Shown one piece after another: positions 4,577 to 19,287 of a stretch of 64,000 nt of DNA; within the stretch, counting starts at the first letter, position 1, and each line of letters opens with the position of its first letter. Made by a program: the position numbers and the translations under genes. Origin of the DNA: an uncultured Gammaproteobacteria bacterium. GTDB lineage: Bacteria > Pseudomonadota > Gammaproteobacteria > Xanthomonadales > Rhodanobacteraceae. The stretch is from positions 284,149-348,148 of the forward strand of contig CAWGHP010000010.1 in the NCBI GenBank assembly GCA_963822465.1. Reading direction: 5' to 3'. Below the pieces are notes generated by a model that ran no database searches, was not told the origin of the DNA, and saw only the letters and a list, made by a program, of their open reading frames with translations.

Positions 4577-5083
4577 TCAGGGCCGTACGGCAGTAACCTC
4601 GATCTCGACGAGGAAGCCCGGATTGGCCAGCGCGGCGACCTGCATGGCCGAGCGCGCGGGCAGGTTCGGTTGCTCCCTTGTGCCGAAGAACTGCGTGTAG
4701 CCCTTCATGAAGCCGGTGAAGTCCATCCTGCCGTTCGCGGCCGGGTCGCCGACCAGGAACACCTGCATCCTGACGATGTCGCCCATGCCCAGGCCGAGGC
4801 CCTCGAGCTGGTCACGGATGGCGCCGAGCACGGCGACGGTCTGGGTTTCGGTGTTGCCGTACGCGGCCACGCTGTCCTTGGGGGCCTTGGCATCGGCCAG
4901 CGGCGGCACCTTGCCGCTGAGCAGGACCAGGGTCTTTCCCGCGGGCACTTCGACGGCCGCTGCGATCGGGAAGGTGCTGTTGTTGGGCAGCTTGTGGCGA
5001 ACCACATCCTGTGCGGATGCCGTTGCCGGGGCCGCCAGTACGAGGATGCAAGAGAGCAGGATCCTGTTGGCGCGCATGGTCAT
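4577..5083 (-). CDS. RidA/YjgF-family imine deaminase with Sec-type signal peptide
   Basis: Last 168 codons of ORF 4577..5677. ATG at 5083 is preceded by AAGGAGA. Signal peptide is MTMRANRILLSCILVLAAPATASA. The YjgF-like core includes GDIVRMQVFLVG and LVEIEVTAV. The start overlaps the stop of the upstream gene (ATGA). Confidence 0.8.
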   Translation of the reverse strand: MTMRANRILLSCILVLAAPATASAQDVVRHKLPNNSTFPIAAAVEVPAGKTLVLLSGKVPPLADAKAPKDSVAAYGNTETQTVAVLGAIRDQLEGLGLGMGDIVRMQVFLVGDPAANGRMDFTGFMKGYTQFFGTREQPNLPARSAMQVAALANPGFLVEIEVTAVRP

Positions 5084-5550
5084 TCTCCTTCCTGTCGCGG
5101 ATGCAACGCGGCGACTTCGGCCGGCGTGATCGGCGGCTCGTAGTGGTTGCCGAAATGAGTACGAAGATAATTGACGACATTGGCGACCTGGGTGTCGTTG
5201 AGCCAGAGCGGATCGAAGAAGAATTCGAAATCCGTCGGGCGCTCGAACGAGGGCATGTTGCGGCGGCCGTTGAGGATCGTCGCGGCCAGGTAGTTTGCCG
5301 AAGCGATGGCCGGATTGCCGGCGAATGCCGGATAGTGGCCGGCGCCTTGCGCGCCGCGGCCGTCCGGCATATGGCAGCCCTGGCAGACCTGCACAAAGAT
5401 CTGCTCGCCATCGGCAAAGCCGAGCATGCCGTTGACGCCGTCGTGGGCGTCGCGCCGCGCCGCATGCGCTGCAGCGGGCAGCAGCATCGTGGTCGTCAGC
5501 AGCGCCGGCAGGATCGACTTCAGGGACACGCGCAGGGTCGAACATTTCAT
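5080..5550 (-). CDS. monohaem c-type cytochrome (exported)
   Basis: Last 156 codons of ORF 5080..6147. Signal-like N-terminus is MKCSTLRVSLKSILPALLTTTMLLPAAAHA. There is a single haem motif CQGCH and a downstream Met (NMPSF). ATG 5550 overlaps the stop of the oxidase gene (ATGA). Confidence 0.8.
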   Translation of the reverse strand: MKCSTLRVSLKSILPALLTTTMLLPAAAHAARRDAHDGVNGMLGFADGEQIFVQVCQGCHMPDGRGAQGAGHYPAFAGNPAIASANYLAATILNGRRNMPSFERPTDFEFFFDPLWLNDTQVANVVNYLRTHFGNHYEPPITPAEVAALHPRQEGE

Positions 5551-9358: not shown

Positions 9359-10318
9359 TTATCTTGCGATTTCGCTTTGCAGCAGGCCGATGCGGTGCGG
9401 CCAGCCCGAGGTGATGGCGGCATTCGCCGGCAGCGTGGAGCGCGCGGCGCGCGCGGCGTCGAGGTCGTCGAACTCGGACCAGCACAGGCTGTACCAGTCG
9501 CCGTCCGGCATGCCGAGCTTGAGCAGGTAAAGCCGGCCGGGTGTGCCGCCCATGTCCGTGACCAGCGCATCGAGCGTGGACGGATCGCGCACGCTGGCCA
9601 GCACCAGGGTGTAGTGGCCGGCCGGCAGGCGGCTGAACTCGGCCGCACCTGGAAGATCCTGCCGTGGCATCGGCGCAACTGTCGAGTCCTGGGTGGCGGC
9701 CGCGGGCATCGGCGCTGCGGCAGGTGGCGTGGCCTCCCGGGCGGCTGCACGTGGGACCGCCGCTGCGGGAGCCGGCGATTGCGGCAGGGCGGAAGCGGAC
9801 GGCGAGTCGGGCGCGGACGGCGCTTCCGCAGCGGCCTGCGCTGGCGCTGGCGTGGACGGTTCGGTTGGCTTCCGTGCGGCCGCGGCGCCGGAATCGGGCG
9901 CACTTTCCGGCGCACTGGCGGATTGTGCGCCGCTCGTTGGGGCGGGTTGCGGATTGCCCGAGGGAGCGCGCGGCTCTGCCGGCACAGCAGTCTCCGCGGC
10001 CGGCGACTGGCGCAGGTAGTTGGGCAGCTTGCTGGCCGCGGGTGCGGGTCGCGGGCGTGCCGCGGCGCCCGTGGCAGGCGCGGGATCCGGTGCAGCCGCC
10101 GGCGCAGCCACGGGAGCGGGCACAGGCGCGGCCTTCCGGACCTCGGTCTTCGCGGGCTCGGCCAGTTCGCCTGTCGCCTTGTCCCGGCAATCGAAGGATT
10201 GCCCGTCGGCGGAGGGCTCGCAGACCCGCTCGGTTCCCGGTTCGAAGGCGGTACCGGTCGCGGCCAGGCCCAGGCCGAGGCCGATCAGGATGCAGCACAG
10301 GGCCTTCCTAGTGCGCAT
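9359..10318 (-). CDS. SPOR domain protein (DamX-like), Pro/Ala-rich linker
   Basis: N-terminal anchor, then a long low-complexity PA-rich region. The C-terminal SPOR-like segment is [18 protein letters not shown]...[24 protein letters not shown]. It sits where damX sits after aroK-aroB in enterics. Confidence 0.8.
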
Positions 10319-10568
10319 GGGAGTTGTCCATTCCCTGGCTGAACATCACGCGGAAGCCGCGCTTGACCTGCGAATCGCGCGCCTTTTCGAACGCCGCCAG
10401 GGCGCTGTCGCGATCGAGATAGACCTCGCGCTTGAGGCTCGAGCGCGCGCCCTGCTGGCCCCATTCGCGATACAGGGTCCAGCCGCCGAGCAGGTCCTGC
10501 TGCAGCGATAGCTGATAGAAGCGGGGCGATTCGGACTCGTCCGGCCGTGTTTGCATGTAGATGCGCAT
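10308..10568 (-). CDS. stand-alone WGR domain protein
   Basis: 86 aa. The sequence RFYQLSLQQDLLGGWTLYREWGQQGARSSLKREVY...ALAAFEKARDSQVKRGF matches the WGR pattern (W-G-R triad region). Confidence 0.75.
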   Translation of the reverse strand: MRIYMQTRPDESESPRFYQLSLQQDLLGGWTLYREWGQQGARSSLKREVYLDRDSALAAFEKARDSQVKRGFRVMFSQGMDNSHAH

Positions 10569-10649
10569 GCCTTGATTTTAACGCGCAATGGCCGTGCTGC
10601 GCTGCATCCGCATGGCTGACCGGTTGCCGCAGCCGCTGCGATCGACCGT

Positions 10650-11738
10650 TCAGGCGGCCGTCGCGATGGCCTGCTCGAGTTCGGCACGAATGATCGATTC
10701 ATCGATGCCGCCAACGATGTCGGCCGCGCCGAGTCCCGTCCACAGCACGAGACGCAACTGGCCGCTCACGGACTTCTTGTCCAGGCGCATGCGTTCCAGC
10801 AGCCGGTGCGCGGCGCAACCCGGGGGCAGGCCGGTCGGCAGGCCGAGTCGCTGCAGCAGCATCTCCAGGCGATCGGCATCGCTGGCCGGGGCGCGCCCGA
10901 GCCTGCTGGAAAGTCGCGCGGCGAGGAGCATGCCGATGGCGACGGCCTCGCCGTGCAACAGGCGGCCGTAACCCGCTTCGACCTCAAGCGCGTGGCCGAA
11001 GGTGTGGCCGAAGTTGAGCAGGGCGCGCTCGCCGGTCTCGCGCTCGTCACGCGCGACCACGCCGGCCTTGTGCCGGCAGCTCTGGGCGATTGCCTGTTCC
11101 AGCGCGCGTTCGTCGCGCGCCAGCAGGGCGTCGGCGTTGGCCTCGATCCAGGCAAAGAATGCCGCATCGCCGATGGCGCCGTACTTGAGTACCTCGGCGA
11201 GGCCGGCGATGTATTCGCGGCGCGGCAGGGTCGCCAGGGTGGCGATATCGATGAACACGGCGCGTGGCTGGTGGAAGGCGCCGACCAGGTTCTTGCCGGC
11301 AGGCAGGTTGACGCCAGTCTTGCCGCCGACCGAGGAATCGACCATGGCCAGCAGGGTGGTCGGCATCTGCACGAAATCGATGCCGCGCATCCAGCAGGCC
11401 GCGGCGAATCCGCCGAGGTCGCCGACCACGCCGCCACCCAGCGCGACCAGGGTGGCGTCGCGGCTGGCACCCAGCCGGGCCAGCGCGTCGAGCACGCGGG
11501 CCACGTTGTCGAAGGTCTTGTGCTGCTCGCCGTCCTCGAGGATGACCGTGGCGTGCTCGAGCCCGTGCAGTCCGGCGAGCACGCGATCGAGGTAGAGCGG
11601 CGCCACGACGGTGTTGCTGAGGACGAGGACATGCTTGCCGGCAATCGCCGGTCGCCATGTCGACGCGGCGTCGAGCACGCCGGAGCCGATGTCGATCGGA
11701 TAGCTGCGCGCGCCGAGTTCCACCTCGAGCCGGATCAT
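10650..11738 (-). CDS. aroB: 3-dehydroquinate synthase
   Basis: 362 aa with motifs GGGVVGDLGGFAAA, GKNLVGAFHQP and FGHTFGHALE. There is an ATGA overlap with aroK. Confidence 0.92.
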   Translation of the reverse strand: MIRLEVELGARSYPIDIGSGVLDAASTWRPAIAGKHVLVLSNTVVAPLYLDRVLAGLHGLEHATVILEDGEQHKTFDNVARVLDALARLGASRDATLVALGGGVVGDLGGFAAACWMRGIDFVQMPTTLLAMVDSSVGGKTGVNLPAGKNLVGAFHQPRAVFIDIATLATLPRREYIAGLAEVLKYGAIGDAAFFAWIEANADALLARDERALEQAIAQSCRHKAGVVARDERETGERALLNFGHTFGHALEVEAGYGRLLHGEAVAIGMLLAARLSSRLGRAPASDADRLEMLLQRLGLPTGLPPGCAAHRLLERMRLDKKSVSGQLRLVLWTGLGAADIVGGIDESIIRAELEQAIATAA

Positions 11739-12286
11739 GCGTGCGCTCCGCTGTCGTTCGCCTGCCAGTGGTGCATGACCTGCGCGCCGACCTGGCGCGC
11801 CATGGCGCTGCTGCTGCCGGCGCCCGATGCGGGCACGCGCAGGTCGGCGATTTCGGCATACAGGGGATTGCGCACCCGGGCGAGGTTCAGCAGTTGTTCG
11901 CGGCGGTCGCCGACGCTCAGCAGGGGCCGCTTGCGATCCGCATGCAGTCGATGCAGCTGCGTGTCGACATCGGCATCGAGCCAGATCACGAAACCGTTGC
12001 TGCGCAGCAGCTCGCGATTGCCTGCATCGAGCACGGCGCCGCCACCGGTCGAAAGGACGATGCCGCGCCGCTGGACGAGTTCCGCAAGCAGGGCGCTTTC
12101 GCGTTTGCGGAATCCGGCTTCGCCTTCGATCTCGAAGGTCAGTGCGATGCTCACGCCCGTGCGTTCCTCGAAAGCGAGGTCCAGGTCGAGGAACGGCAAT
12201 CCCAGCTGCGCAGCCAGGCGGCGCCCGATCGACGTCTTGCCCGCGCCCATCGGACCGACAAGGAACAGGTTGGGAGCAGGGTTCAT
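11735..12286 (-). CDS. aroK: shikimate kinase
   Basis: Last 183 codons of ORF 11735..12733, with ATG at 12286. Walker A is LVGPMGAGKTSIGRRLA; STGGGAV is also present. Confidence 0.9.
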   Translation of the reverse strand: MNPAPNLFLVGPMGAGKTSIGRRLAAQLGLPFLDLDLAFEERTGVSIALTFEIEGEAGFRKRESALLAELVQRRGIVLSTGGGAVLDAGNRELLRSNGFVIWLDADVDTQLHRLHADRKRPLLSVGDRREQLLNLARVRNPLYAEIADLRVPASGAGSSSAMARQVGAQVMHHWQANDSGAHA

Positions 12287-12356
12287 GGTGCGGATGCTAG
12301 CAGCCTGGATTGCCGCTTGGGCTACACTGTGCGTTCTTGTCCGATCAATTTCGCCC

Positions 12357-12884
12357 ATGTTGCGTTTCATTCTCGTGTTCATGCTGCTGCTCGTCGTCCT
12401 CTTCATCGCCGAGCTGACCCCATTCGTCGAGCGCCACGTCATCGTCCCGTTCACGACGATCCTGGCCGACATTTGCGCGTGGATCATCCATCTTTTCGAC
12501 GGCAGCACGGTTTCCCGCGGCAAGCTGATCCAGAACGCCACCGGCACCTTCATCGTGTCGATCGAGCGCGGCTGCAACGGCATCGAGGCGGTGATCATCC
12601 TGATTTCGGCCATCCTCGCGTTTCCGGCGCCATGGAAGCATCGACTGGCCGGCCTGTTCCTCGGCTTCTTCGCCATCCAGCTGCTCAATCTGGTGCGTAT
12701 CGTCAGCCTGTTTTTCCTCGGTCTCTGGAGCAAGGTCTGGTTCGAGTGGTTCCACCTGTACCTGTGGCAGGCGCTGATCGTGATCGATGCGCTGATCGTG
12801 TTCCTGGTATGGCTGCGTTACATTCCGAGGGTCCCGCGGGATTCCGGGCCGGGGTCTCCCGCGATGCCGACGCCGGCGGCCTGA
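12357..12884 (+). CDS. xrtH: minimal exosortase, exosortase H (XrtH)-like
   Basis: Last 175 codons of ORF 10806..12884, with ATG at 12357. It is a polytopic membrane protein. Exosortase signature residues are Cys in ERGCNGIEA, Arg in NLVRIVSLF and His in WFHLYLWQ. Confidence 0.65.
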   Translation: MLRFILVFMLLLVVLFIAELTPFVERHVIVPFTTILADICAWIIHLFDGSTVSRGKLIQNATGTFIVSIERGCNGIEAVIILISAILAFPAPWKHRLAGLFLGFFAIQLLNLVRIVSLFFLGLWSKVWFEWFHLYLWQALIVIDALIVFLVWLRYIPRVPRDSGPGSPAMPTPAA

Positions 12885-12944
12885 GTCCGCGGCGCGCAGG
12901 CTTTGCTATAGTGCAAGTACGCGTTTTGCAAGGGAGTTTGTGCA

Positions 12945-13148
12945 ATGTCTGTAGCCAAGGTCATCGAATTCAGCAGTTCCTCGAAAAAAGGCGTCGAAGA
13001 CGCCGTGCAGAGCGGCCTGAAGAAAGTCGCCGAGACGGTGAAAAACATCCAGGGCGCGTGGGTCAGCGAAACCAAGGTCATCACCGACAAGTCCGGAAAC
13101 ATCAAGGAATGGCGGGTCAACCTGCGCATCACCTTCGTTGTCGAATAG
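12945..13148 (+). CDS. dodecin family (flavin-binding) protein
   Basis: 67 aa: MSVAKVIEFSSSSKKGVEDAVQSGLKKVAETVKNIQGAWVSETKVI...WRVNLRITFVVE, the typical dodecin length and pattern. Confidence 0.8.
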   Translation: MSVAKVIEFSSSSKKGVEDAVQSGLKKVAETVKNIQGAWVSETKVITDKSGNIKEWRVNLRITFVVE

Positions 13149-13202
13149 GCGGTTGGGCGCGGTAACTGAATCGGCGCCATGGGCGCCGAAAGGCTTGTAC
13201 CG

Positions 13203-13901
13203 ATGAGCAAGCTCGATCCGGTGATCGGATTCCTCGAAGATGATACGGACCAGGCCGACCTGATCCTGCACTGGCTCGAACAGGCCGGCTACCGTACGCG
13301 CATGTTCGCCTCGGCCGCGGAGTTCCGGCGTCGCCAGGGTGCCGAGGCCATCGACCTGCTCCTGCTCGACTGGATGCTGCCGGATGCCAGCGGACCCGAG
13401 GTGGCCGACTGGATCCGTTCCTCGGCCAATGCCAATTTGCCGATCATCTTCCTGACCGTGCGCGGCAGCGAAGCCGATGTCGTGCGCGGACTCAATGCCG
13501 GCGGCGATGACTACGTCATCAAGCCCGCCAAGCAGCAGGAGCTGATCGCGCGCGTGGGCGCCGTGCTGCGCCGGCTCGGCCTCGAAGGGGGCGATGGCGA
13601 AAGCTTCGAGGTGGCGCCCTACACGGTGGACCCGAGGCGCCAGCGCATCAGCGTCGGCGAACAGTCCATCGATCTGACGCCGCGAGAATTCGAACTGGCG
13701 TCGTTCCTGTTCCGCCGCCATGGGCGCATCGTCAGCCGCGATGCCCTGCTCGAGAACGTCTGGAACATGAATGCGTCCGTATCCACGCGAACGGTCGATA
13801 CCCATGTCAGCCGATTGCGCAAGAAACTCGAACTCAATGGCGAACACGGCTGGCGCCTGTCGGCCGTCTACCAGCATGGCTACCGCCTCGAGCAGACTTG
13901 A
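13203..13901 (+). CDS. OmpR/PhoB-family response regulator
   Basis: ORF 13179..13901 (start at 13179 or 13203). Receiver is IGFLEDD...LLLLDWMLPDASG...KP. The winged helix is LTPREFELASFLFRRHGRIVSRDALL...VDTHVSRLRKKL...GYRL. Confidence 0.9.
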   Translation: MSKLDPVIGFLEDDTDQADLILHWLEQAGYRTRMFASAAEFRRRQGAEAIDLLLLDWMLPDASGPEVADWIRSSANANLPIIFLTVRGSEADVVRGLNAGGDDYVIKPAKQQELIARVGAVLRRLGLEGGDGESFEVAPYTVDPRRQRISVGEQSIDLTPREFELASFLFRRHGRIVSRDALLENVWNMNASVSTRTVDTHVSRLRKKLELNGEHGWRLSAVYQHGYRLEQT

Positions 13902-13951
13902 AGTACGCGCGATTCGACGCGCTGGATTGATACCGAAGAGGGGAAATCCGC

Positions 13952-14608
13952 ATGGCAGCAGCAGGCAAGTCAGGACGGAAAAAGGCCGGATCACGTTCCG
14001 CTTCGCATAAACTGGTCGCCGCAGCCAAGCGAACCCAGCCGAAAGCAAGGAACAGAACCATGTCCGAGCCGAAGAAACCCGCAGCCGATGCGGACGCAGA
14101 GCGCAATGTCGACCAGATCCGCGACATCCTTTTCGGCGGCCAGATGCGCGACTACGAGCGCCGCTTCCAGGAACTGGGCCAACGCCTCGAAGCCGAAATG
14201 GGACGCCTGCGCGAAAGCCAGGACAAGCGAATGGCGCAGATGGACAAGCGCATCGACGAGCAGTTCGAAAAGGCAGGCAAGCAATTGCGCCAGGAAATCA
14301 GCGATCGCAACCAGGCGGTCGATGACCTCGAAACACGCATGCAGCAGGCCGCGCGCACCGCGCGTACCGAAATCAACAAGGCGCTCGAAGGGCTCGGCGG
14401 CGAGTTGGGCGCGGTCGATGAACGCTTGCGCGATGCACTGGCCGAACTCGGTTCCGCGCTCAACGAACGCGCCAGCGAAGCGGCCGCGTCGATTTCTCGC
14501 GCGAGCGCCGAGCTGCGCGCCGAGAAAGTCGGCCGCGAAGACATGTCCGCGTTGCTGACCGAGCTGGCGCTGCGCCTGAAGGGCGATTTCGAACTGCCTT
14601 CAAACTGA
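13952..14608 (+). CDS. coiled-coil protein of unknown function
   Basis: ORF with GAGGGG 8 nt upstream of ATG 13952 (alternative start at 14060). It has a basic N-tail followed by continuous heptad-like E/R/Q/L-rich helices. No TM or catalytic motif is seen. Confidence 0.6.
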   Translation: MAAAGKSGRKKAGSRSASHKLVAAAKRTQPKARNRTMSEPKKPAADADAERNVDQIRDILFGGQMRDYERRFQELGQRLEAEMGRLRESQDKRMAQMDKRIDEQFEKAGKQLRQEISDRNQAVDDLETRMQQAARTARTEINKALEGLGGELGAVDERLRDALAELGSALNERASEAAASISRASAELRAEKVGREDMSALLTELALRLKGDFELPSN

Positions 14609-14630
14609 CCGGCCGGGCCGTACCGCCGCC

Positions 14631-16373
14631 ATGAGCGACCTCGACCGGCTCAAGCAACTCCTGCTTGCCGAAGAGCGCGACGCCCTGGCACGCGCGCAGC
14701 AACGGCTCGACCAGCTGGAGCAGAAGAACCGCGAGCTCGCCGCGATCCTGCCTGCGCTGGTGCGCGCGGCGCCGCAGGAGCCGATGACCCGCGCGCTGGC
14801 CAGCCCGGTCGCCGCTGCATTGGGCAGCGCGGTGCGCGACAACCGCAGCAGCATCGTCGATGCCCTGTTCCCGGTGATCGGCCCGATCATCCGCAAGGCC
14901 ATCGCCGAGGCCCTGCGCGGACTGATGAGCGACCTCAACCGCGTCGTCGAACACGGCTTCAGCCCGCGCGGCATCCGCTGGCGCATCGAGGCCTGGCGCA
15001 GTGGCGTGCCGTTCGCGCAGATCGTCCTCAGGCACACCTTGCGCTACAGCATCGACCACCTGTTCCTGATCGAGCGCGATTCGGGCCTTGTCCTGCATCG
15101 CGAGTCGGCGCCGGGCCTGCCCGATCTCGATGCGGATGCAATAGCAGGCATGCTCACCGCGATTGGCCAGTTCGTGCGCGACTCGGTCGGCCGCGAGGGC
15201 GAAGGTTCGCTCGAAGCCGCACGCGTCGGCGAGCACCTGCTGTGGGTGCTCGACGGTCCGCGCGCTTCGCTGGCCTGTTTCATATCCGGCGTGCCGCAGG
15301 AATCGCTGCGTGGAATCCTCAGCGATCGCCTTGAGCAGATCCATGCGCAATGGCCGGATGCGGTCGACGCTGGCGGGCCGGCGGCACCAGCCGGGCTGGA
15401 CTGGCAGGCGGCGCTGGATCCGGTGGAACTGGTAGCCGCGAGTGCGGCCATGGCCGGCGATGCGGAGCCGGCTGCTGCGGGCGGCACGCGCTGGCCGCTG
15501 CTGATCATCCTGGTGCTCCTGCTTGGCGCGGTCGGCTGGTATTTCGTGCGCAACGAGCGTTGGCAATCGCGGGTTGAAAGCGTGCGCAGCACGCTGGCCG
15601 CGCAGCCTGGCTTCCTGTTGACCGGGATCGACTCCGAGCCCTGGAAGTCCCTGGTCATCCACGGCGTCCTCGATTCCGATGCCGAACCCTTGCAGCCGCT
15701 GCTGGCTGCGGCTGATCTCGGCGACGTGCAGCCGCAATGGGAGCTCAAGGGCTATCTGTCGAGCGCCGACCCGATCCTCGAAAAGCGCGCCCGACGCCTG
15801 CTCGATCCGCCTGCGAGCGTGAGTCTGGCCGTGCGCCAGGGCGTCCTCACCCTGCAGGGCAGCGCGGACGCCGAATGGATCCGCACGGCTCGCGAACGCG
15901 CGGCCTGGATTGCCGGCGTGCGCGATGTCGACTGGCAGGTTGCCGCGCCAGCCGCGAGCGGGCCGGACCCGGATGCGCTGGCCAGGGCAGCCGCGCACGC
16001 GAAACTGGTGGCGCTGGCCGATGAGCTGGCCCGGGCAAGGGTGATCTTCGTCGACGACAGCCAGCCGAGTGCCGAGGGCCTGGCGCAACTCGCGCGCATT
16101 GCCGCCGACCTGCAACAGGCCGGGACGCTGGCGCGGGAGGCGCGGGCCAGCCTGCGCCTGCACATCCTCGGTCATACCGACGCCACCGGCAGCGCCGAAA
16201 CCAACCGCCGCCTGCGCGCCGAACGCGCCGCATGGCTTCGCGATAGACTGGGTGAATCAGGGGTCCCGGCCGACTGGCTGCGGAATGCGCAAATGGGCGA
16301 GGACGTGCAGGACGACGACTCGGAATTTCGCGGCGCGAGTCTGCGCCTGGTCATCGCGGCGAACGAGCCATGA
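14631..16373 (+). CDS. membrane protein: N-terminal coiled coil, Roadblock/LC7-like region, one TM, C-terminal OmpA-like peptidoglycan-binding domain
   Basis: 580 aa. TM is WPLLIILVLLLGAVGWYFV. OmpA_C-like motif is LHILGHTDATGSAETNRRLRAERAAWLRDRL. The Roadblock-like assignment (YSIDHLFLIERDSGLVLHRES...DADAIAGMLTAIGQFVRDS...LLWVLDGPRASLACFISG) is pattern-based only. Confidence 0.75.
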   Translation: MSDLDRLKQLLLAEERDALARAQQRLDQLEQKNRELAAILPALVRAAPQEPMTRALASPVAAALGSAVRDNRSSIVDALFPVIGPIIRKAIAEALRGLMSDLNRVVEHGFSPRGIRWRIEAWRSGVPFAQIVLRHTLRYSIDHLFLIERDSGLVLHRESAPGLPDLDADAIAGMLTAIGQFVRDSVGREGEGSLEAARVGEHLLWVLDGPRASLACFISGVPQESLRGILSDRLEQIHAQWPDAVDAGGPAAPAGLDWQAALDPVELVAASAAMAGDAEPAAAGGTRWPLLIILVLLLGAVGWYFVRNERWQSRVESVRSTLAAQPGFLLTGIDSEPWKSLVIHGVLDSDAEPLQPLLAAADLGDVQPQWELKGYLSSADPILEKRARRLLDPPASVSLAVRQGVLTLQGSADAEWIRTARERAAWIAGVRDVDWQVAAPAASGPDPDALARAAAHAKLVALADELARARVIFVDDSQPSAEGLAQLARIAADLQQAGTLAREARASLRLHILGHTDATGSAETNRRLRAERAAWLRDRLGESGVPADWLRNAQMGEDVQDDDSEFRGASLRLVIAANEP

Positions 16374-16870
16374 CGCCGCGTGCGCACAAGATCTGCATGC
16401 TCGGCGATTTCGGCGTGGGCAAGACCAGCCTCGTCTCGCGCTTCGTGCGCAATACGTTCTCCGACAAATACCTGACCACCGTTGGCGTCAAGGTCGACAG
16501 CAAGGAAGTCAATTGCGGCGACGCCGGAACGGTCAAGCTCGTGGTCTGGGACATCGCCGGCAATAGCATCCTCGATGCACTCAACATGAGTTACCTGCGT
16601 GGCGCCAGCGGATTGCTGCTGGTCGCCGATGGCACCCGCGAATCGACGATGCGTGCGGCGATCGACCTGCTGCTGCAGTCGCGCAGCCTGCTTCCGGAAG
16701 CCCGGGCCGTCCTGCTCGTCAACAAGCTCGACCTCGTCGAACGCTGGGAAGTTGCTGCGTCGACCCTGGTGGAATTGCGCAAGACGCTGCCGGTCATCGA
16801 GACCAGCGCCCTCTCCGGTACCGGCGTGGAGGAGGCCTTCGTCGAACTGGCGCGGAGGGTGGGCGAATGA
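16370..16870 (+). CDS. Ras/Rab-like small GTPase
   Basis: 166 aa. G1 is GDFGVGKTS, G3 is WDIAG, G4 is NKLD and G5 is ETSAL, followed by GTGVEEAFVELARRV as in Ras. ATGA overlaps occur at both ends (16370-16373 and 16867-16870). Confidence 0.88.
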   Translation: MTPRAHKICMLGDFGVGKTSLVSRFVRNTFSDKYLTTVGVKVDSKEVNCGDAGTVKLVVWDIAGNSILDALNMSYLRGASGLLLVADGTRESTMRAAIDLLLQSRSLLPEARAVLLVNKLDLVERWEVAASTLVELRKTLPVIETSALSGTGVEEAFVELARRVGE

Positions 16871-18429
16871 ACGAAGCGCTCGACCTCGCCGACTTCTCGC
16901 CCGAAGTGGAACGCGAGATCGCGCGCTTCCTGTTCAAGCGCGCACAACCGCTGCTGCTCGAATTCGACGCGGCCTGGCACCTGGTCAACCTGCAGGGCGA
17001 TGCGTCGCGCTTCGGCTTCGACGTCGACAATGCGCAGGCCGGCGCACGCCAGTTGCAGGACCTGTTCCTCGGCATGGTGCTGGACGAAGCCATCGACCTG
17101 CCGTTCGTGCAGATGCCGAACGGTCGCAGCGTGCACGTGCACCTGATGGTCGTCGACGGCGGCTACCAGGTGCTCCTGCTCGATGCACAGGGTGAGCACG
17201 ACCGCCAGCAGGCCCAGCAGCAATCGGGCAACGAGGCGACCCTAATCGGCTACCAGAAGAGCAAGGCGATCGCGCAGCTGCGCCAGATCCGCAGCGAGCT
17301 CGAGCAGCAGCGCAGTCGCCTGCAGGAAGCGAATGCACTGAAGAACGCGCTGATCGCGACGCTCAGCCACGACTTCCGCACGCCACTGACTTCGGTCTTC
17401 GGTTATCTCCACCTGCTCGAGAAGCAGGTAAACGGCGATGACGAGGTAAGGCATTCGCTGCGCGCGCTGAAACGCAATGCGCATTTTCTCTTCACCCTGG
17501 CGGAAAACCTCCTCGAGTACGCGCGCAGCGACAGCCGCTCGAGCCTGCTCGCCCCGGTCGCCACCGACCTGCACGCCATGGCCGACGACATGGATGGCAT
17601 GTTCCGGCCACTGGCCACCGAGCGGAAGCTGAACTTCGACATCCGCGTCGACGTTCCTGCCGGGCAACAACCCGTGCTCGACGAGATGCGCGTGCGCCAG
17701 ATCCTCGTCAACCTGCTTTCGAACGCGGTGCGCTATACCGCCGAAGGCGGCGTCAGCGCGCGCCTGGAGTGGAAGGACGACGCCCTCATCATCGAGGTCA
17801 GGGACACCGGCATCGGCATCGCCGAGGAATTCCGCGAACAGGTCTTCGTGGCGTTCAATCGTACCGGCCAGGCGGCTGGCAGCGGCGCCGGCCTCGGCCT
17901 CAGCATCGTCAAGCGCCTCGTCGACCAGATGCACGGCACGCTCGAGCTGCAGTCCAGGCTAGGCGCGGGTTCGCGCTTCCGCATCGTCCTGCCGAGCCTG
18001 GCGACGATGCGCGACCAGGAACGCGCGGCCGGAATGCCGGAGGCCGCCGCGGCCCGCGTCGACGGCGTGCACCGGGTGCTCGTGGTCGACGATGATCCGG
18101 ACATCACCCACCTGCTCGAGGTGCTGCTCGGCGATCTTGGCTTCCACGTGCGCAGCGTCGGCGATGCCACGAAGGCGGTCGAGCAGGCCATGGCCGATCC
18201 GCCCGACGTGCTCGTCGTCGATGTCGAACTGCCAGGCCTCTCGGGCAATACCGCGGTATTCCGCCTGCGTGCCAAGGGCTATCGCGGGCACATCATCACG
18301 CTCTCGGCGACACCCACAGAGGAAGCGCGGCTGGTTGCGCTGAATGCCGGCGCCAACCAGTACCTGACCAAGCCGATCAACGTCGAGCAGCTTGCGCGCG
18401 CGATGCAGCGCGCCGTCGCAGCACCCTGA
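16867..18429 (+). CDS. cytoplasmic hybrid histidine kinase/response regulator
   Basis: 520 aa with no TM. H-box is LSHDFRTPLTS. ATPase boxes are NLLSNAVRYT, DTGIGI and GAGLGLS. Receiver is VLVVDDDPDI...VLVVDVELPGLSG...KP. About 150 N-terminal residues are unassigned. Confidence 0.9.
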   Translation: MNEALDLADFSPEVEREIARFLFKRAQPLLLEFDAAWHLVNLQGDASRFGFDVDNAQAGARQLQDLFLGMVLDEAIDLPFVQMPNGRSVHVHLMVVDGGYQVLLLDAQGEHDRQQAQQQSGNEATLIGYQKSKAIAQLRQIRSELEQQRSRLQEANALKNALIATLSHDFRTPLTSVFGYLHLLEKQVNGDDEVRHSLRALKRNAHFLFTLAENLLEYARSDSRSSLLAPVATDLHAMADDMDGMFRPLATERKLNFDIRVDVPAGQQPVLDEMRVRQILVNLLSNAVRYTAEGGVSARLEWKDDALIIEVRDTGIGIAEEFREQVFVAFNRTGQAAGSGAGLGLSIVKRLVDQMHGTLELQSRLGAGSRFRIVLPSLATMRDQERAAGMPEAAAARVDGVHRVLVVDDDPDITHLLEVLLGDLGFHVRSVGDATKAVEQAMADPPDVLVVDVELPGLSGNTAVFRLRAKGYRGHIITLSATPTEEARLVALNAGANQYLTKPINVEQLARAMQRAVAAP

Positions 18430-19287
18430 TCAACCCCGCGCGCGATGGCGGCGCGCAATCACAGCACGCGCGGCGTCGAGTTCGAGGACGAGATCGGCCT
18501 GGCCCGGCAGCGTCGCCAGCGCATGCCGGCTCAGGCGTTCGCTGAACTGGATGAAGCGACGGATGCCCTGGCGCGACATCGCGCGCGCGGCGCCGCGACG
18601 GCGCAGGGCGCGCTCCTGCTGGTCGCGCCAGCGCTCGACGACCTCGAAGCAGGGCGCCTGCAACACGAGCAGGCGATCGATGCGTCGCCAAAGGCGCGCG
18701 TAGGCGCCGGCCAGCTGCGCATTGACGAAGGTTCGCCAGCGGCCATCCGCATCCTCGTCGCGCTCGAGCCGGTTGACCGGCTCGGGCAAGGCTGCCGCCT
18801 GCTCGGCCTTGAGCGCGACGCACCAGCCTTCGAGCACGATCCACTGCGGCGGCCGCGTGACGCGGCGCCAGCGCGACGGCGGCAGGCGCGTGTCGCGTCC
18901 CTTGTCGAAGCGCGGCAGGCGCGCCGGCGTGGCCGGATCCGCCCGCAGCAGCGCGGCCAGCGTGCTTTCCAGCAGGGCGATGTCGTGCGTGCCCGGCACG
19001 CCGCGCACGGCCAGCAACGGATGGACCTCGCGCGCAAGCGTGTTGCGCTGGCGCCGGCCGTAGTAGAAGTCATCGATCGACAGGGCCAGCGCTGAAATGC
19101 CGCAGCGACGCGCGGCGGCCACCAGTTGCGCAGCCAGCGTGCTCTTGCCGCTGCCCTGCAACGCCGAGAGGCCGACCAGCAGCGGCTTGCGGCGCCGCGC
19201 GGACACGGCGCGCAGATGGCCGACCGCCTCGTCGACGACATCGAGGGCAAAGCCGTGCTGCGTGCTAGCATTTCGTCCCATGAACAA
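18430..19287 (-). CDS. P-loop kinase, D-glycerate 3-kinase-like family
   Basis: 285 aa. Walker A is GLSALQGSGKSTLA, followed by SIDDFYY and RGVPGTHD, as in GLYK/YFH7-type kinases. Confidence 0.6.
   Translation of the reverse strand: MFMGRNASTQHGFALDVVDEAVGHLRAVSARRRKPLLVGLSALQGSGKSTLAAQLVAAARRCGISALALSIDDFYYGRRQRNTLAREVHPLLAVRGVPGTHDIALLESTLAALLRADPATPARLPRFDKGRDTRLPPSRWRRVTRPPQWIVLEGWCVALKAEQAAALPEPVNRLERDEDADGRWRTFVNAQLAGAYARLWRRIDRLLVLQAPCFEVVERWRDQQERALRRRGAARAMSRQGIRRFIQFSERLSRHALATLPGQADLVLELDAARAVIARRHRARG

Follow-up and report, generated by a model that had tools for sequence, protein, structure and literature searches.

A cassette of five genes lies at positions 13203-18429 of the 64-kb stretch of contig CAWGHP010000010.1 analyzed here, which is called the window below. 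As judged from motifs and synteny only, the cassette belongs to the Group 1 Rup system of small Ras/Rab-like GTPases. It probably works as a histidine-kinase-output G-protein signalling system, in which the envelope-spanning protein DUFX would regulate the GTPase Rup, and Rup would act on a soluble hybrid histidine kinase.

Identification of the Cassette as a Group 1 Rup System

The five open reading frames (ORFs) read in the window are co-directional on the + strand, and an independent gene caller found the same genes, coding for 232, 182, 580, 166, and 520 amino acids (aa), on identical Logan metagenome contigs. The first gene (13203..13901) encodes an OmpR/PhoB-type response regulator of 232 aa, recognized by Pfam and with the start called independently. 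The second (14060..14608) encodes DUFY, a cytoplasmic coiled-coil protein for which the longest ORF starts at 13952 and the second caller returned 182 aa. DUFX (14631..16373, 580 aa) was recognized through a homologue search and an AlphaFold2 model, and the 166-aa Rup of Group 1 (16370..16870) through Pfam, matches in PDB, and an alignment of orthologues. The last gene (16867..18429) was assigned by Pfam to a soluble hybrid histidine kinase of 520 aa. Read directly, the junction before 14631 is a gap of 22 nucleotides (nt; 14609-14630), and ATGA overlaps join DUFX to the GTPase gene (16370-16373) and the GTPase gene to the kinase gene (16867-16870). The layout given in the original prediction, i.e., five same-strand genes with one such gap and two such overlaps, is thus borne out by the ORFs, the second gene caller, and direct reading. 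Its list of domains for the five proteins also agreed with Pfam, AlphaFold2, and Foldseek, and two BON-like units were added to it. The closest homologues came from Dokdonella and other Rhodanobacteraceae.

The original prediction regarded this arrangement as undescribed; it corresponds to the Group 1 Rup system of Wuichet and Søgaard-Andersen (2015, Genome Biol Evol 7:57; PMC4316618). According to that paper, Group 1 rup genes are located in a conserved four-gene neighbourhood, which codes for a cytoplasmic coiled-coil protein, a protein with an unknown domain often followed by a transmembrane (TM) helix and OmpA, Rup itself, and a signalling output. The latter is typically a diguanylate cyclase/phosphodiesterase fusion or a histidine kinase and has an N-terminal region with an invariant Gln. 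The paper, with its 27 members, uses the notation 'DUFY>DUFX:OmpA>Rup>' in Table S2, DUFX being a domain of unknown function. Group 1 Rup was described as lacking the catalytic Gln of the G3 box, a partner was proposed to supply a Gln in trans, and homologues of MglB were not predicted to be partners of Rup. The authors hypothesized a signalling complex linked to the membrane and comparable to the conservon; the idea put forward for the present cassette, that a G-protein switch connects a partner anchored in the envelope with a signalling output, amounts to the same hypothesis. Later papers retain 'Rup1' as a eubacterial group clustering with Rab/Ras/Rho/Ran and Asgard RasL.

All sequence and gene-content features by which PMC4316618 defines the system were found here: DUFY, DUFX with TM and OmpA parts, a Rab-like GTPase devoid of Gln, and an output with a conserved Gln, arranged in the order DUFY > DUFX:TM:OmpA > Rup > output. 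The cassette differs from the typical members described there in having a hybrid kinase as its output and an OmpR-type regulator of its own as the first gene of the operon; sister lineages additionally encode a histidine phosphotransfer (Hpt) protein. Moreover, an MglB-like Roadblock fold and two BON-like units are predicted for DUFX, and the outputs of related loci extend to PAS-only, HD-GYP, adenylate cyclase, and PP2C proteins. What is new here comprises the predicted Roadblock and BON identities of DUFX and the PAS-like output module suggested by the model, the wider catalogue of outputs, the linkage of the regulator and Hpt in Gammaproteobacteria, and the Phe at the G12 position of the GTPase.

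Conservation of the Gene Order

Group 1 Rup is widespread. With the 300 N-terminal aa of DUFX as the query, the representatives of 3262 clusters formed at 50% identity were retrieved at E<=1e-3, and those of 1184 at E<=1e-30. When species-representative genomes were scanned, at least 591 of the first 600 candidate stretches proved to encode a relative of DUFX, and 80 loci were kept. They cover at least seven phyla (Pseudomonadota, Acidobacteriota, Gemmatimonadota, Desulfobacterota, Bacteroidota, Chloroflexota, and Cyanobacteriota/Sericytochromatia), the gammaproteobacterial loci belonging to Xanthomonadales in the broad sense, Woeseiaceae, Chromatiales, and Thiomargarita.

The DUFY gene was located directly upstream of DUFX in 73 of the 76 loci with room on the contig. 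A GTPase gene lay directly downstream of DUFX in 64 of 72 loci and anywhere in the locus in 69 of the 72; four-base gene overlaps were frequent among the 80 loci. The gene order is far beyond chance. Together with the presence of the regulator in 22 of the 34 loci with a histidine kinase output, these counts support the earlier supposition that the five genes form a conserved unit.

The fourth gene of the published neighbourhood varied with the lineage. It encodes a hybrid kinase in Gammaproteobacteria, a protein of ~290 aa with the N-terminal module and PAS and no enzymatic output in Pyrinomonadaceae, a PAS-histidine kinase-REC-REC-Hpt protein in Blastocatellia, an HD-GYP protein in Dehalococcoidales, and an adenylate cyclase in Cyanobacteriota/Sericytochromatia. 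A PP2C phosphatase without the PAS-like module takes this place in Gemmatimonadota (L023:9054-9941, L033, L049, L057, and L068); PP2C is not among the outputs named in the passages of PMC4316618 that were consulted.

Predicted Architecture of DUFX and DUFY

DUFX was modelled with AlphaFold2 from 38 sequences, with a mean predicted local distance difference test (pLDDT) score of 80.8. The model suggests a bitopic inner-membrane protein, with helices and a Roadblock-like domain in the cytoplasm and two BON-like units and an OmpA-like domain in the periplasm. The N-in/C-out topology, as in MotB, TssL, and Rv0899, is proposed because no signal peptide was seen at the N-terminus and the Roadblock partner resides in the cytoplasm.

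Residues 1-124 (14631..15002) form a long helical region, predicted at lower confidence (helices 3-46, 49-70, 72-109, and 112-124; pLDDT 61-86). The family alignment revealed an invariant motif, LFPxIGPxIRK, at residues 79-89 within it.

The region of residues 128-240 (15012..15350) was predicted to adopt a Roadblock/LC7 (MglB-like) fold, with helix 128-136, strands 140-148 and 154-159, helix 168-186, strands 195-199, 202-208, and 212-219, and helix 224-240, i.e., an α-β-β-α-β-β-β-α topology. Foldseek searches of PDB matched the Asgard Roadblock2 protein 9jq8 at 7.6e-4 with a probability of 1.00, and Thermus MglB (3t12/1j3w/3t1s) at ~1e-3 with 25-26% identity and a probability of 1.00. The Streptomyces Roadblock protein 3leq, as well as 7t3a_K and 8fw5_D, were also found at ~1e-3 with a probability of 1.00; further matches were to roadblock/longin domains of the GATOR1-Rag-Ragulator and CPLANE complexes. 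Since Foldseek reports no query coordinates, the region was placed by a separate BLASTP comparison of the whole DUFX with the Thermus MglB sequence taken from the PDB alignment. The best match, of marginal significance (E=0.005), lay at residues 125-207, with 31% of the 98 aligned columns identical. An hhalign comparison of the DUFX family profile with a two-sequence MglB alignment gave the same register, again marginally (P=0.004). A Roadblock-like fold at 128-240 is well supported as a prediction and falls within the segment 100-260 that had been proposed earlier. The best-conserved element of the domain is helix α2, with the motif DxDAIAGMLTAIxxFxxDS. The heptapeptide GVPFAQI just in front of the domain (window 15003-15023) resembles GSPFAEI in the C-terminal part of Myxococcus xanthus MglB (BLASTP E=0.22), a likeness that is probably due to chance.

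A disordered linker leads in the model from the Roadblock-like domain to the single TM helix at ~288-310 (15492..15560), seen as the hydrophobic stretch WPLLIILVLLLGAVGWYFV in the translation and contained in a modelled helix of residues 288-323. It is followed by two α/β units at residues 328-438 (15612..15944), predicted to be periplasmic and BON-like. The top Foldseek matches there, at ~1e-4, were the dual-BON proteins OsmY (8rjx), BonA (6v4v), and DolP (7a2d), with a high root-mean-square deviation arising from the domain orientation. After a long helix comes an OmpA_C-like domain (470-576; 16038..16358), predicted to bind peptidoglycan, with many Foldseek matches to OmpA_C, Pal, OprF, and YfiB (target TM-scores 0.5-0.69). 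Its HTDxxGxxxxNxxLxxxRA motif holds the family-invariant N525, R529, and R532 and the near-invariant D517; the Asp and Arg of this motif are presumably the binders of the peptidoglycan stem peptide. Of the parts expected in this protein, AlphaFold2 and Foldseek recovered the OmpA_C fold and suggested BON-like units; in Pfam, both stayed below the cut-offs (OmpA, 23.0 bits against 27.2, E=1e-4; a faint BON match at residues 393-434, E=0.041).

Long DUFX variants of 860-1000 aa (P0156, P0164, P0176, and P0207) contain the periplasmic BON-like unit repeated several times, and some of them also carry a duplicate of the N-terminal helical motif, with a long coiled coil between the two copies.

DUFY matched coiled-coil families only, every one below its Pfam cut-off. 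Two motifs were conserved among 77 sequences, IRDILFGxQMRDYExRF at the N-terminus and LAxLLTELAxRL at the C-terminus. A weak resemblance was noted between the N-terminus of DUFX (LDRLKQLLLAEE, 14634-14675) and the N-terminal motif of DUFY (VDQIRDILFGGQ, 14102-14143), with a local hhalign P of 0.003 over 14 columns. It may reflect a common interaction motif, or else chance, and was not used further.

The Rup GTPase

The GTPase is a single-domain protein of 166 aa, recognized by Pfam Ras (E=4e-29, of the Ras/Roc/Arf type) and by TIGR00231 (58.7 bits against a cut-off of 42.5). Its best PDB matches were Rab4, Ypt1, and Rab1 at ~1e-23, in which WDTAGQ stands opposite its WDIAGN. The boxes are G1 at G12-T19 with Phe14, G3 at D61-G64 followed by Asn65, G4 at N118-D121, and G5 at S146-A147. 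In 71 orthologues, the GxxxxGKT P-loop, the switch-I Thr (T37), DxxG, NKxD, and SA were strictly conserved. The residue after DxxG was variable, most commonly K, E, A, R, or T, with no conserved Gln. A Phe occupied the position of Ras G12 in 64 of the 71, as it does in the window protein. The statement that the GTPase has all Ras/Rab boxes consequently needs correction: the residue after DxxG is Asn, not Gln, the G12 position is taken by Phe, and the Gln is missing across the family.

A bulky residue at the G12 position blocks the arginine finger of the GTPase-activating protein (GAP) in Ras. Because of the Phe at this position and the lack of the catalytic Gln, the classical RasGAP mechanism seems impossible for Rup, and the options that remain are a carboxamide supplied in trans, as in RapGAP or TBC, or no hydrolysis, as in Rnd/RhoH. 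That every motif for binding nucleotide and Mg is strictly conserved is an argument for a role of the nucleotide state of Rup.

The Hybrid Kinase and the Response Regulator

Pfam assigned HisKA (159-223), HATPase_c (272-377), and REC (404-513) domains to the kinase and nothing to residues 1-150; the H-box SHDFRTPL and the contexts of the receiver Asp were read from the translations. Full-length homologues showed 41-83% identity and, where the source was named, came mostly from Dokdonella and other Rhodanobacteraceae.

For residues 1-155, AlphaFold2 (45 sequences, pLDDT 81.8) predicted helix 12-26, strands 29-34 and 39-43, helices 46-49 and 53-66, and strands 76-82, 88-96, and 99-106, after which a long linker helix (108-154) runs into the HisKA domain. 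The α-β-β-α-α-β-β-β order of residues 12-106 (16900..17184) and the Foldseek matches tentatively suggest a PAS-like domain. The best matches were the PAS-like kinase domains of FlrB (7yrt, 1.5e-3), VC2136, and YF1, none of them below 1e-3, and Roadblock proteins ranked lower in the same list. Neither a ligand-binding pocket nor a cofactor motif was recognized in this N-terminal module. A second Roadblock domain, paralogous to that of DUFX, was also considered for the kinase N-terminus and rejected: hhalign found no similarity between the two, and Foldseek favoured, weakly, the PAS-like fold.

A family of output N-termini was assembled from the related loci. The module, of ~123 aa (kinase residues ~24-147), was present in 53 of the 80 loci. 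Among 55 sequences, Q118 was conserved in 54, Q119 in 53, and D106 in 54. In the model, D106 ends the last strand, and the Gln pair (17218..17223) lies ~3 turns into the linker helix. Q118/Q119 corresponds to the 'invariant glutamine' of PMC4316618. Depending on the phylum, the PAS-like module is joined to a hybrid kinase, a PAS-only protein, a PAS-histidine kinase-REC-REC-Hpt protein, HD-GYP, or an adenylate cyclase, and such fusion of one module to varied outputs would be the pattern expected of a common G-protein-docking input module.

The regulator consists of a receiver and a winged-helix domain (Response_reg, 2.8e-21; Trans_reg_C, 1.6e-24). A homologous regulator was found directly upstream in 26 related loci, among them the 22 with a histidine kinase output counted above; the OmpR-type regulator is outside the universal core and conserved in the gammaproteobacterial loci of the histidine kinase type. 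In eight Woeseiaceae-type loci (L050, L056, L059, L061, L062, L070, L071, and L026), a gene for a stand-alone Hpt protein of ~100 aa with the motif GHNLxGSGxAYG precedes the regulator (in L061 at 5049-5375). The resulting order, Hpt-response regulator-DUFY-DUFX-Rup-hybrid histidine kinase, ties the regulator functionally to the hybrid kinase. The kinase of the window is devoid of an Hpt domain according to Pfam, and no ORF in the window matched, at E<=10, the hidden Markov model (HMM) built from the Hpt genes of the related loci. Its description as a complete phosphorelay enzyme does not hold; in the related loci, Hpt is the product of a gene of its own.

Proposed Mechanism and Alternative Explanations

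In the mechanism that we consider probable, the periplasmic BON/OmpA part of DUFX would report or exploit the state of the envelope through contact with peptidoglycan or the outer membrane. The Roadblock-like domain of DUFX, probably dimeric, would bind Rup and set its nucleotide state or its membrane location; MglB exerts such control on MglA, and Roadblock/longin platforms on Rag/Rab GTPases. Once bound to GTP, Rup would dock on the hybrid kinase at the PAS-like module, shifting the balance between the autokinase and phosphatase activities of the kinase. Hydrolysis of GTP by Rup would need a residue provided in trans, and the published candidate is the conserved Gln pair of the output linker. 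Transfer of the phosphate to the OmpR-type regulator, in one step or by way of an Hpt protein whose gene lies elsewhere, would then change transcription. DUFY would probably serve as a scaffold by pairing with the helices at the N-terminus of DUFX.

Several points weigh against this mechanism. Every protein-protein contact in it was deduced from gene order and analogy, and searches on Rup, Rup1, and the published locus tags found no experimental studies of any Group 1 Rup member in the library searched. The profile check suggested with the original prediction was negative for the Roadblock part: Robl_LC7 (PF03259) of Pfam matched neither the DUFX of the window nor 19 diverse members of its family even at E<=10, and searches of NCBIfam and, with hmmsearch, of PDB were also negative for Roadblock in DUFX. 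M. xanthus MglB gave an E value of 1.8 with DUFX in BLASTP and no match in hhalign. The Roadblock assignment is thus derived from structure prediction and a marginal pairwise alignment only, and sequence-level membership of DUFX in the Robl_LC7 family is not demonstrated. On the output side, the Gln pair may be a trans-acting catalytic element or, just as well, a coiled-coil feature that serves the structure of the signalling helix. The PP2C phosphatases of Gemmatimonadota lack the PAS-like module, so that docking on it cannot be universal. No Hpt gene lies in the window, which leaves more than one conceivable route for the phosphate between the hybrid kinase and the regulator. The Phe at the G12 position and the missing Gln suggest that Rup may perform no GTPase cycling at all, and the direction of signalling could be either outside-in or inside-out.

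The last two points each lead to another explanation. In the first of them, which seems unlikely to us, Rup is a GTPase-dead adaptor, constitutively bound to GTP like Rnd/RhoH, which bridges DUFX and the output with no GAP involved, and signalling depends on whether the kinase is recruited or released at the membrane. Substitutions at G12 and at the Gln after DxxG abolish both the intrinsic and the GAP-stimulated hydrolysis in Ras; the corresponding positions of the 71 Rup orthologues carry Phe in 64 cases and an unconstrained residue, respectively, and Pfam recognized no RasGAP, RapGAP, or TBC domain in the cassette. However, strict conservation of the P-loop, the switch-I Thr, DxxG, NKxD, and SA would be expected if nucleotide exchange and state mattered, and both the Gln pair of the partner and the predicted Roadblock domain, which has the same fold as the GAP of MglA, would be available in trans.

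A reversed flow of the signal appears improbable. The PAS-like module would then sense a cytoplasmic cue and set Rup, and Rup would act through the Roadblock domain on the engagement of peptidoglycan or the outer membrane by the BON/OmpA part of DUFX, e.g., in envelope tethering or remodelling, with the kinase and the regulator as a parallel branch. PAS-like domains are typical sensor modules, the Pyrinomonadaceae protein consists of the N-terminal module and PAS only, without an enzymatic output, and the multiplied BON-like units of the long DUFX variants suggest a structural or reach function. On the other hand, the fourth gene encodes a classical output enzyme in most phyla (kinase, cyclase, or HD-GYP, and PP2C in Gemmatimonadota), which fits a flow towards the output, and the module has no identified ligand pocket or cofactor motif.

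True homology with the actinobacterial conservon CvnA-D, with a mechanism shared by descent, is very unlikely. Conservons (CvnA-D/Mfp) follow the same operon logic, which combines a kinase, a Roadblock protein, a small GTPase, and an accessory protein, and a Streptomyces Roadblock protein (3leq) was among the Foldseek matches of DUFX. Nevertheless, CvnD is a GTPase of MglA group 2, CvnA a membrane kinase carrying HAMP and, at the C-terminus, LPxR, and CvnC a DUF742 protein. DUF742 was sought in the five cassette proteins and not found, the kinase here is soluble and hybrid and has a PAS-like input in place of TM-HAMP, and the predicted Roadblock domain forms part of a BON/OmpA envelope protein and escapes the Robl_LC7 profile. 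The GTPase is Rab/Ras-like and of the Rup family, not of MglA group 2 (PMC4316618). The label 'conservon-like' is not supported as a statement of relationship.

Finally, it is hardly conceivable that the genes are mere neighbours without functional coupling, with DUFX as an ordinary MotB/Pal/ZorB-like anchor or a part of a defence system: the database names 'MotB' and 'OmpA' of DUFX homologues, weak matches of DUFY to the ZorA tail, and the presence of ZorB among the Foldseek matches point that way, but the synteny extends across seven phyla with overlapping stop and start codons, and no MotA/ZorA-type channel partner is present. An anti-phage Zorya-like stator was considered and rejected, as PADLOC gave only coiled-coil matches of DUFY to the ZorA tail and no significant matches for DUFX, the GTPase, or the regulator.

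Comparison with Other Known Systems

MglA/MglB of M. xanthus and Thermus thermophilus resemble the Group 1 Rup cassette in pairing a small GTPase of the Ras superfamily with a regulator of the Roadblock/LC7 fold. Thermus MglB superposes on the DUFX model in Foldseek and aligns with residues 125-207 as described above. MglB is a soluble, stand-alone protein, whereas the Roadblock-like domain of DUFX is part of a trans-envelope protein and fails the Robl_LC7 profile. Catalysis by MglA uses an intrinsic Arg and Gln; Rup, unlike MglA, has no Gln in cis. MglA was treated as a separate family with its own catalytic mechanism in PMC4316618. The cassette resembles MglA/MglB and the conservon in logic only and is a member of neither.

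The periplasmic half of DUFX recalls Rv0899 (ArfA/OmpATb), which shares the TM-BON-OmpA_C architecture and was aligned by Foldseek over 278 columns (2l26), and, in its dual-BON arrangement, OsmY, DolP, and BonA. We know of no cytoplasmic signalling domain or G-protein partner in Rv0899, OsmY, DolP, or BonA. Roadblock/longin domains of eukaryotes (Ragulator-Rag, GATOR1, Mon1-Ccz1, and TRAPP) are membrane-anchored platforms that serve Ras-like GTPases as guanine nucleotide exchange factors (GEFs), GAPs, or scaffolds. The likeness of DUFX to them is predicted at the level of the fold, and the anchoring of DUFX is bacterial and would involve peptidoglycan.

Genomic Surroundings

The cassette is flanked by housekeeping genes, aroK and aroB upstream and pdxH, proC, and a gene of the YGGT family downstream, and because of these neighbours we take it to be chromosomal and not part of an island. 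No second copy of any of its components was found within the window. No sigma-70-like promoter was found, and shuffled sequence contained terminator-like sites at least as often.

The GC content of the window is high (~61-71%). It dips to 0.62 at 12001-14000, against ~0.67-0.70 in the flanks, in a region that spans the genes for an exosortase-like protein, dodecin, and the regulator. The dodecin gene (12945-13148, +; 67 aa, PF07311) lies on the same strand 54 nt upstream of the regulator start and may share a promoter with the cassette. Just upstream of it, a gene at 12303-12884 (+) encodes an exosortase-like membrane protein of ~190 aa (Exosortase_EpsH, E=9e-7) with a CNGIE motif. The minus strand at 9359-12733 carries aroK, aroB, a gene for a small WGR-domain protein (10308-10568), and a gene for a Pro/Ala-rich protein (9359-10318), the C-terminus of which looks SPOR/DamX-like with no Pfam match. 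The aroK-aroB-damX order there resembles the enterobacterial one. On the other side, a gene in convergent orientation (18430-19287, -) abuts the kinase stop codon. It encodes a protein of 285 aa with the Walker A motif GSGKST and no Pfam match at 1e-3, and its position is kept in the identical Logan contigs.

Significance

The Group 1 Rup system is large and phylogenetically important, and the cassette offers a useful mechanistic lead. The probable Roadblock-like partner domain and the PAS-like docking module with its Gln pair provide concrete surfaces for mutation. They bear on the way in which a Ras-like switch devoid of Gln is turned on and off in bacteria, and on the question whether Roadblock-type regulation of Ras-like GTPases predates eukaryotes. 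Some databases label DUFX homologues 'MotB' or 'OmpA', and the present assignment corrects the annotation of thousands of genes that carry labels such as 'MotB', 'OmpA family', or 'hypothetical protein'.

A broader reading, possible if somewhat doubtful at present, is that, in almost all of the loci examined, Rup1 is firmly coupled to a cryptic Roadblock domain of the MglB type on a trans-envelope BON/OmpA protein and forms a receptor-coupled G-protein pathway with interchangeable outputs (kinase, cyclase, HD-GYP, or PP2C). A periplasmic module engaging peptidoglycan or lipid would then control a Ras-like switch through a Roadblock GEF/GAP platform. If true, this would overturn the view, expressed in PMC4316618, that Rup works without MglB-type partners, and it would extend the partnership of GTPases and Roadblock proteins to the Ras-like clade in bacteria.

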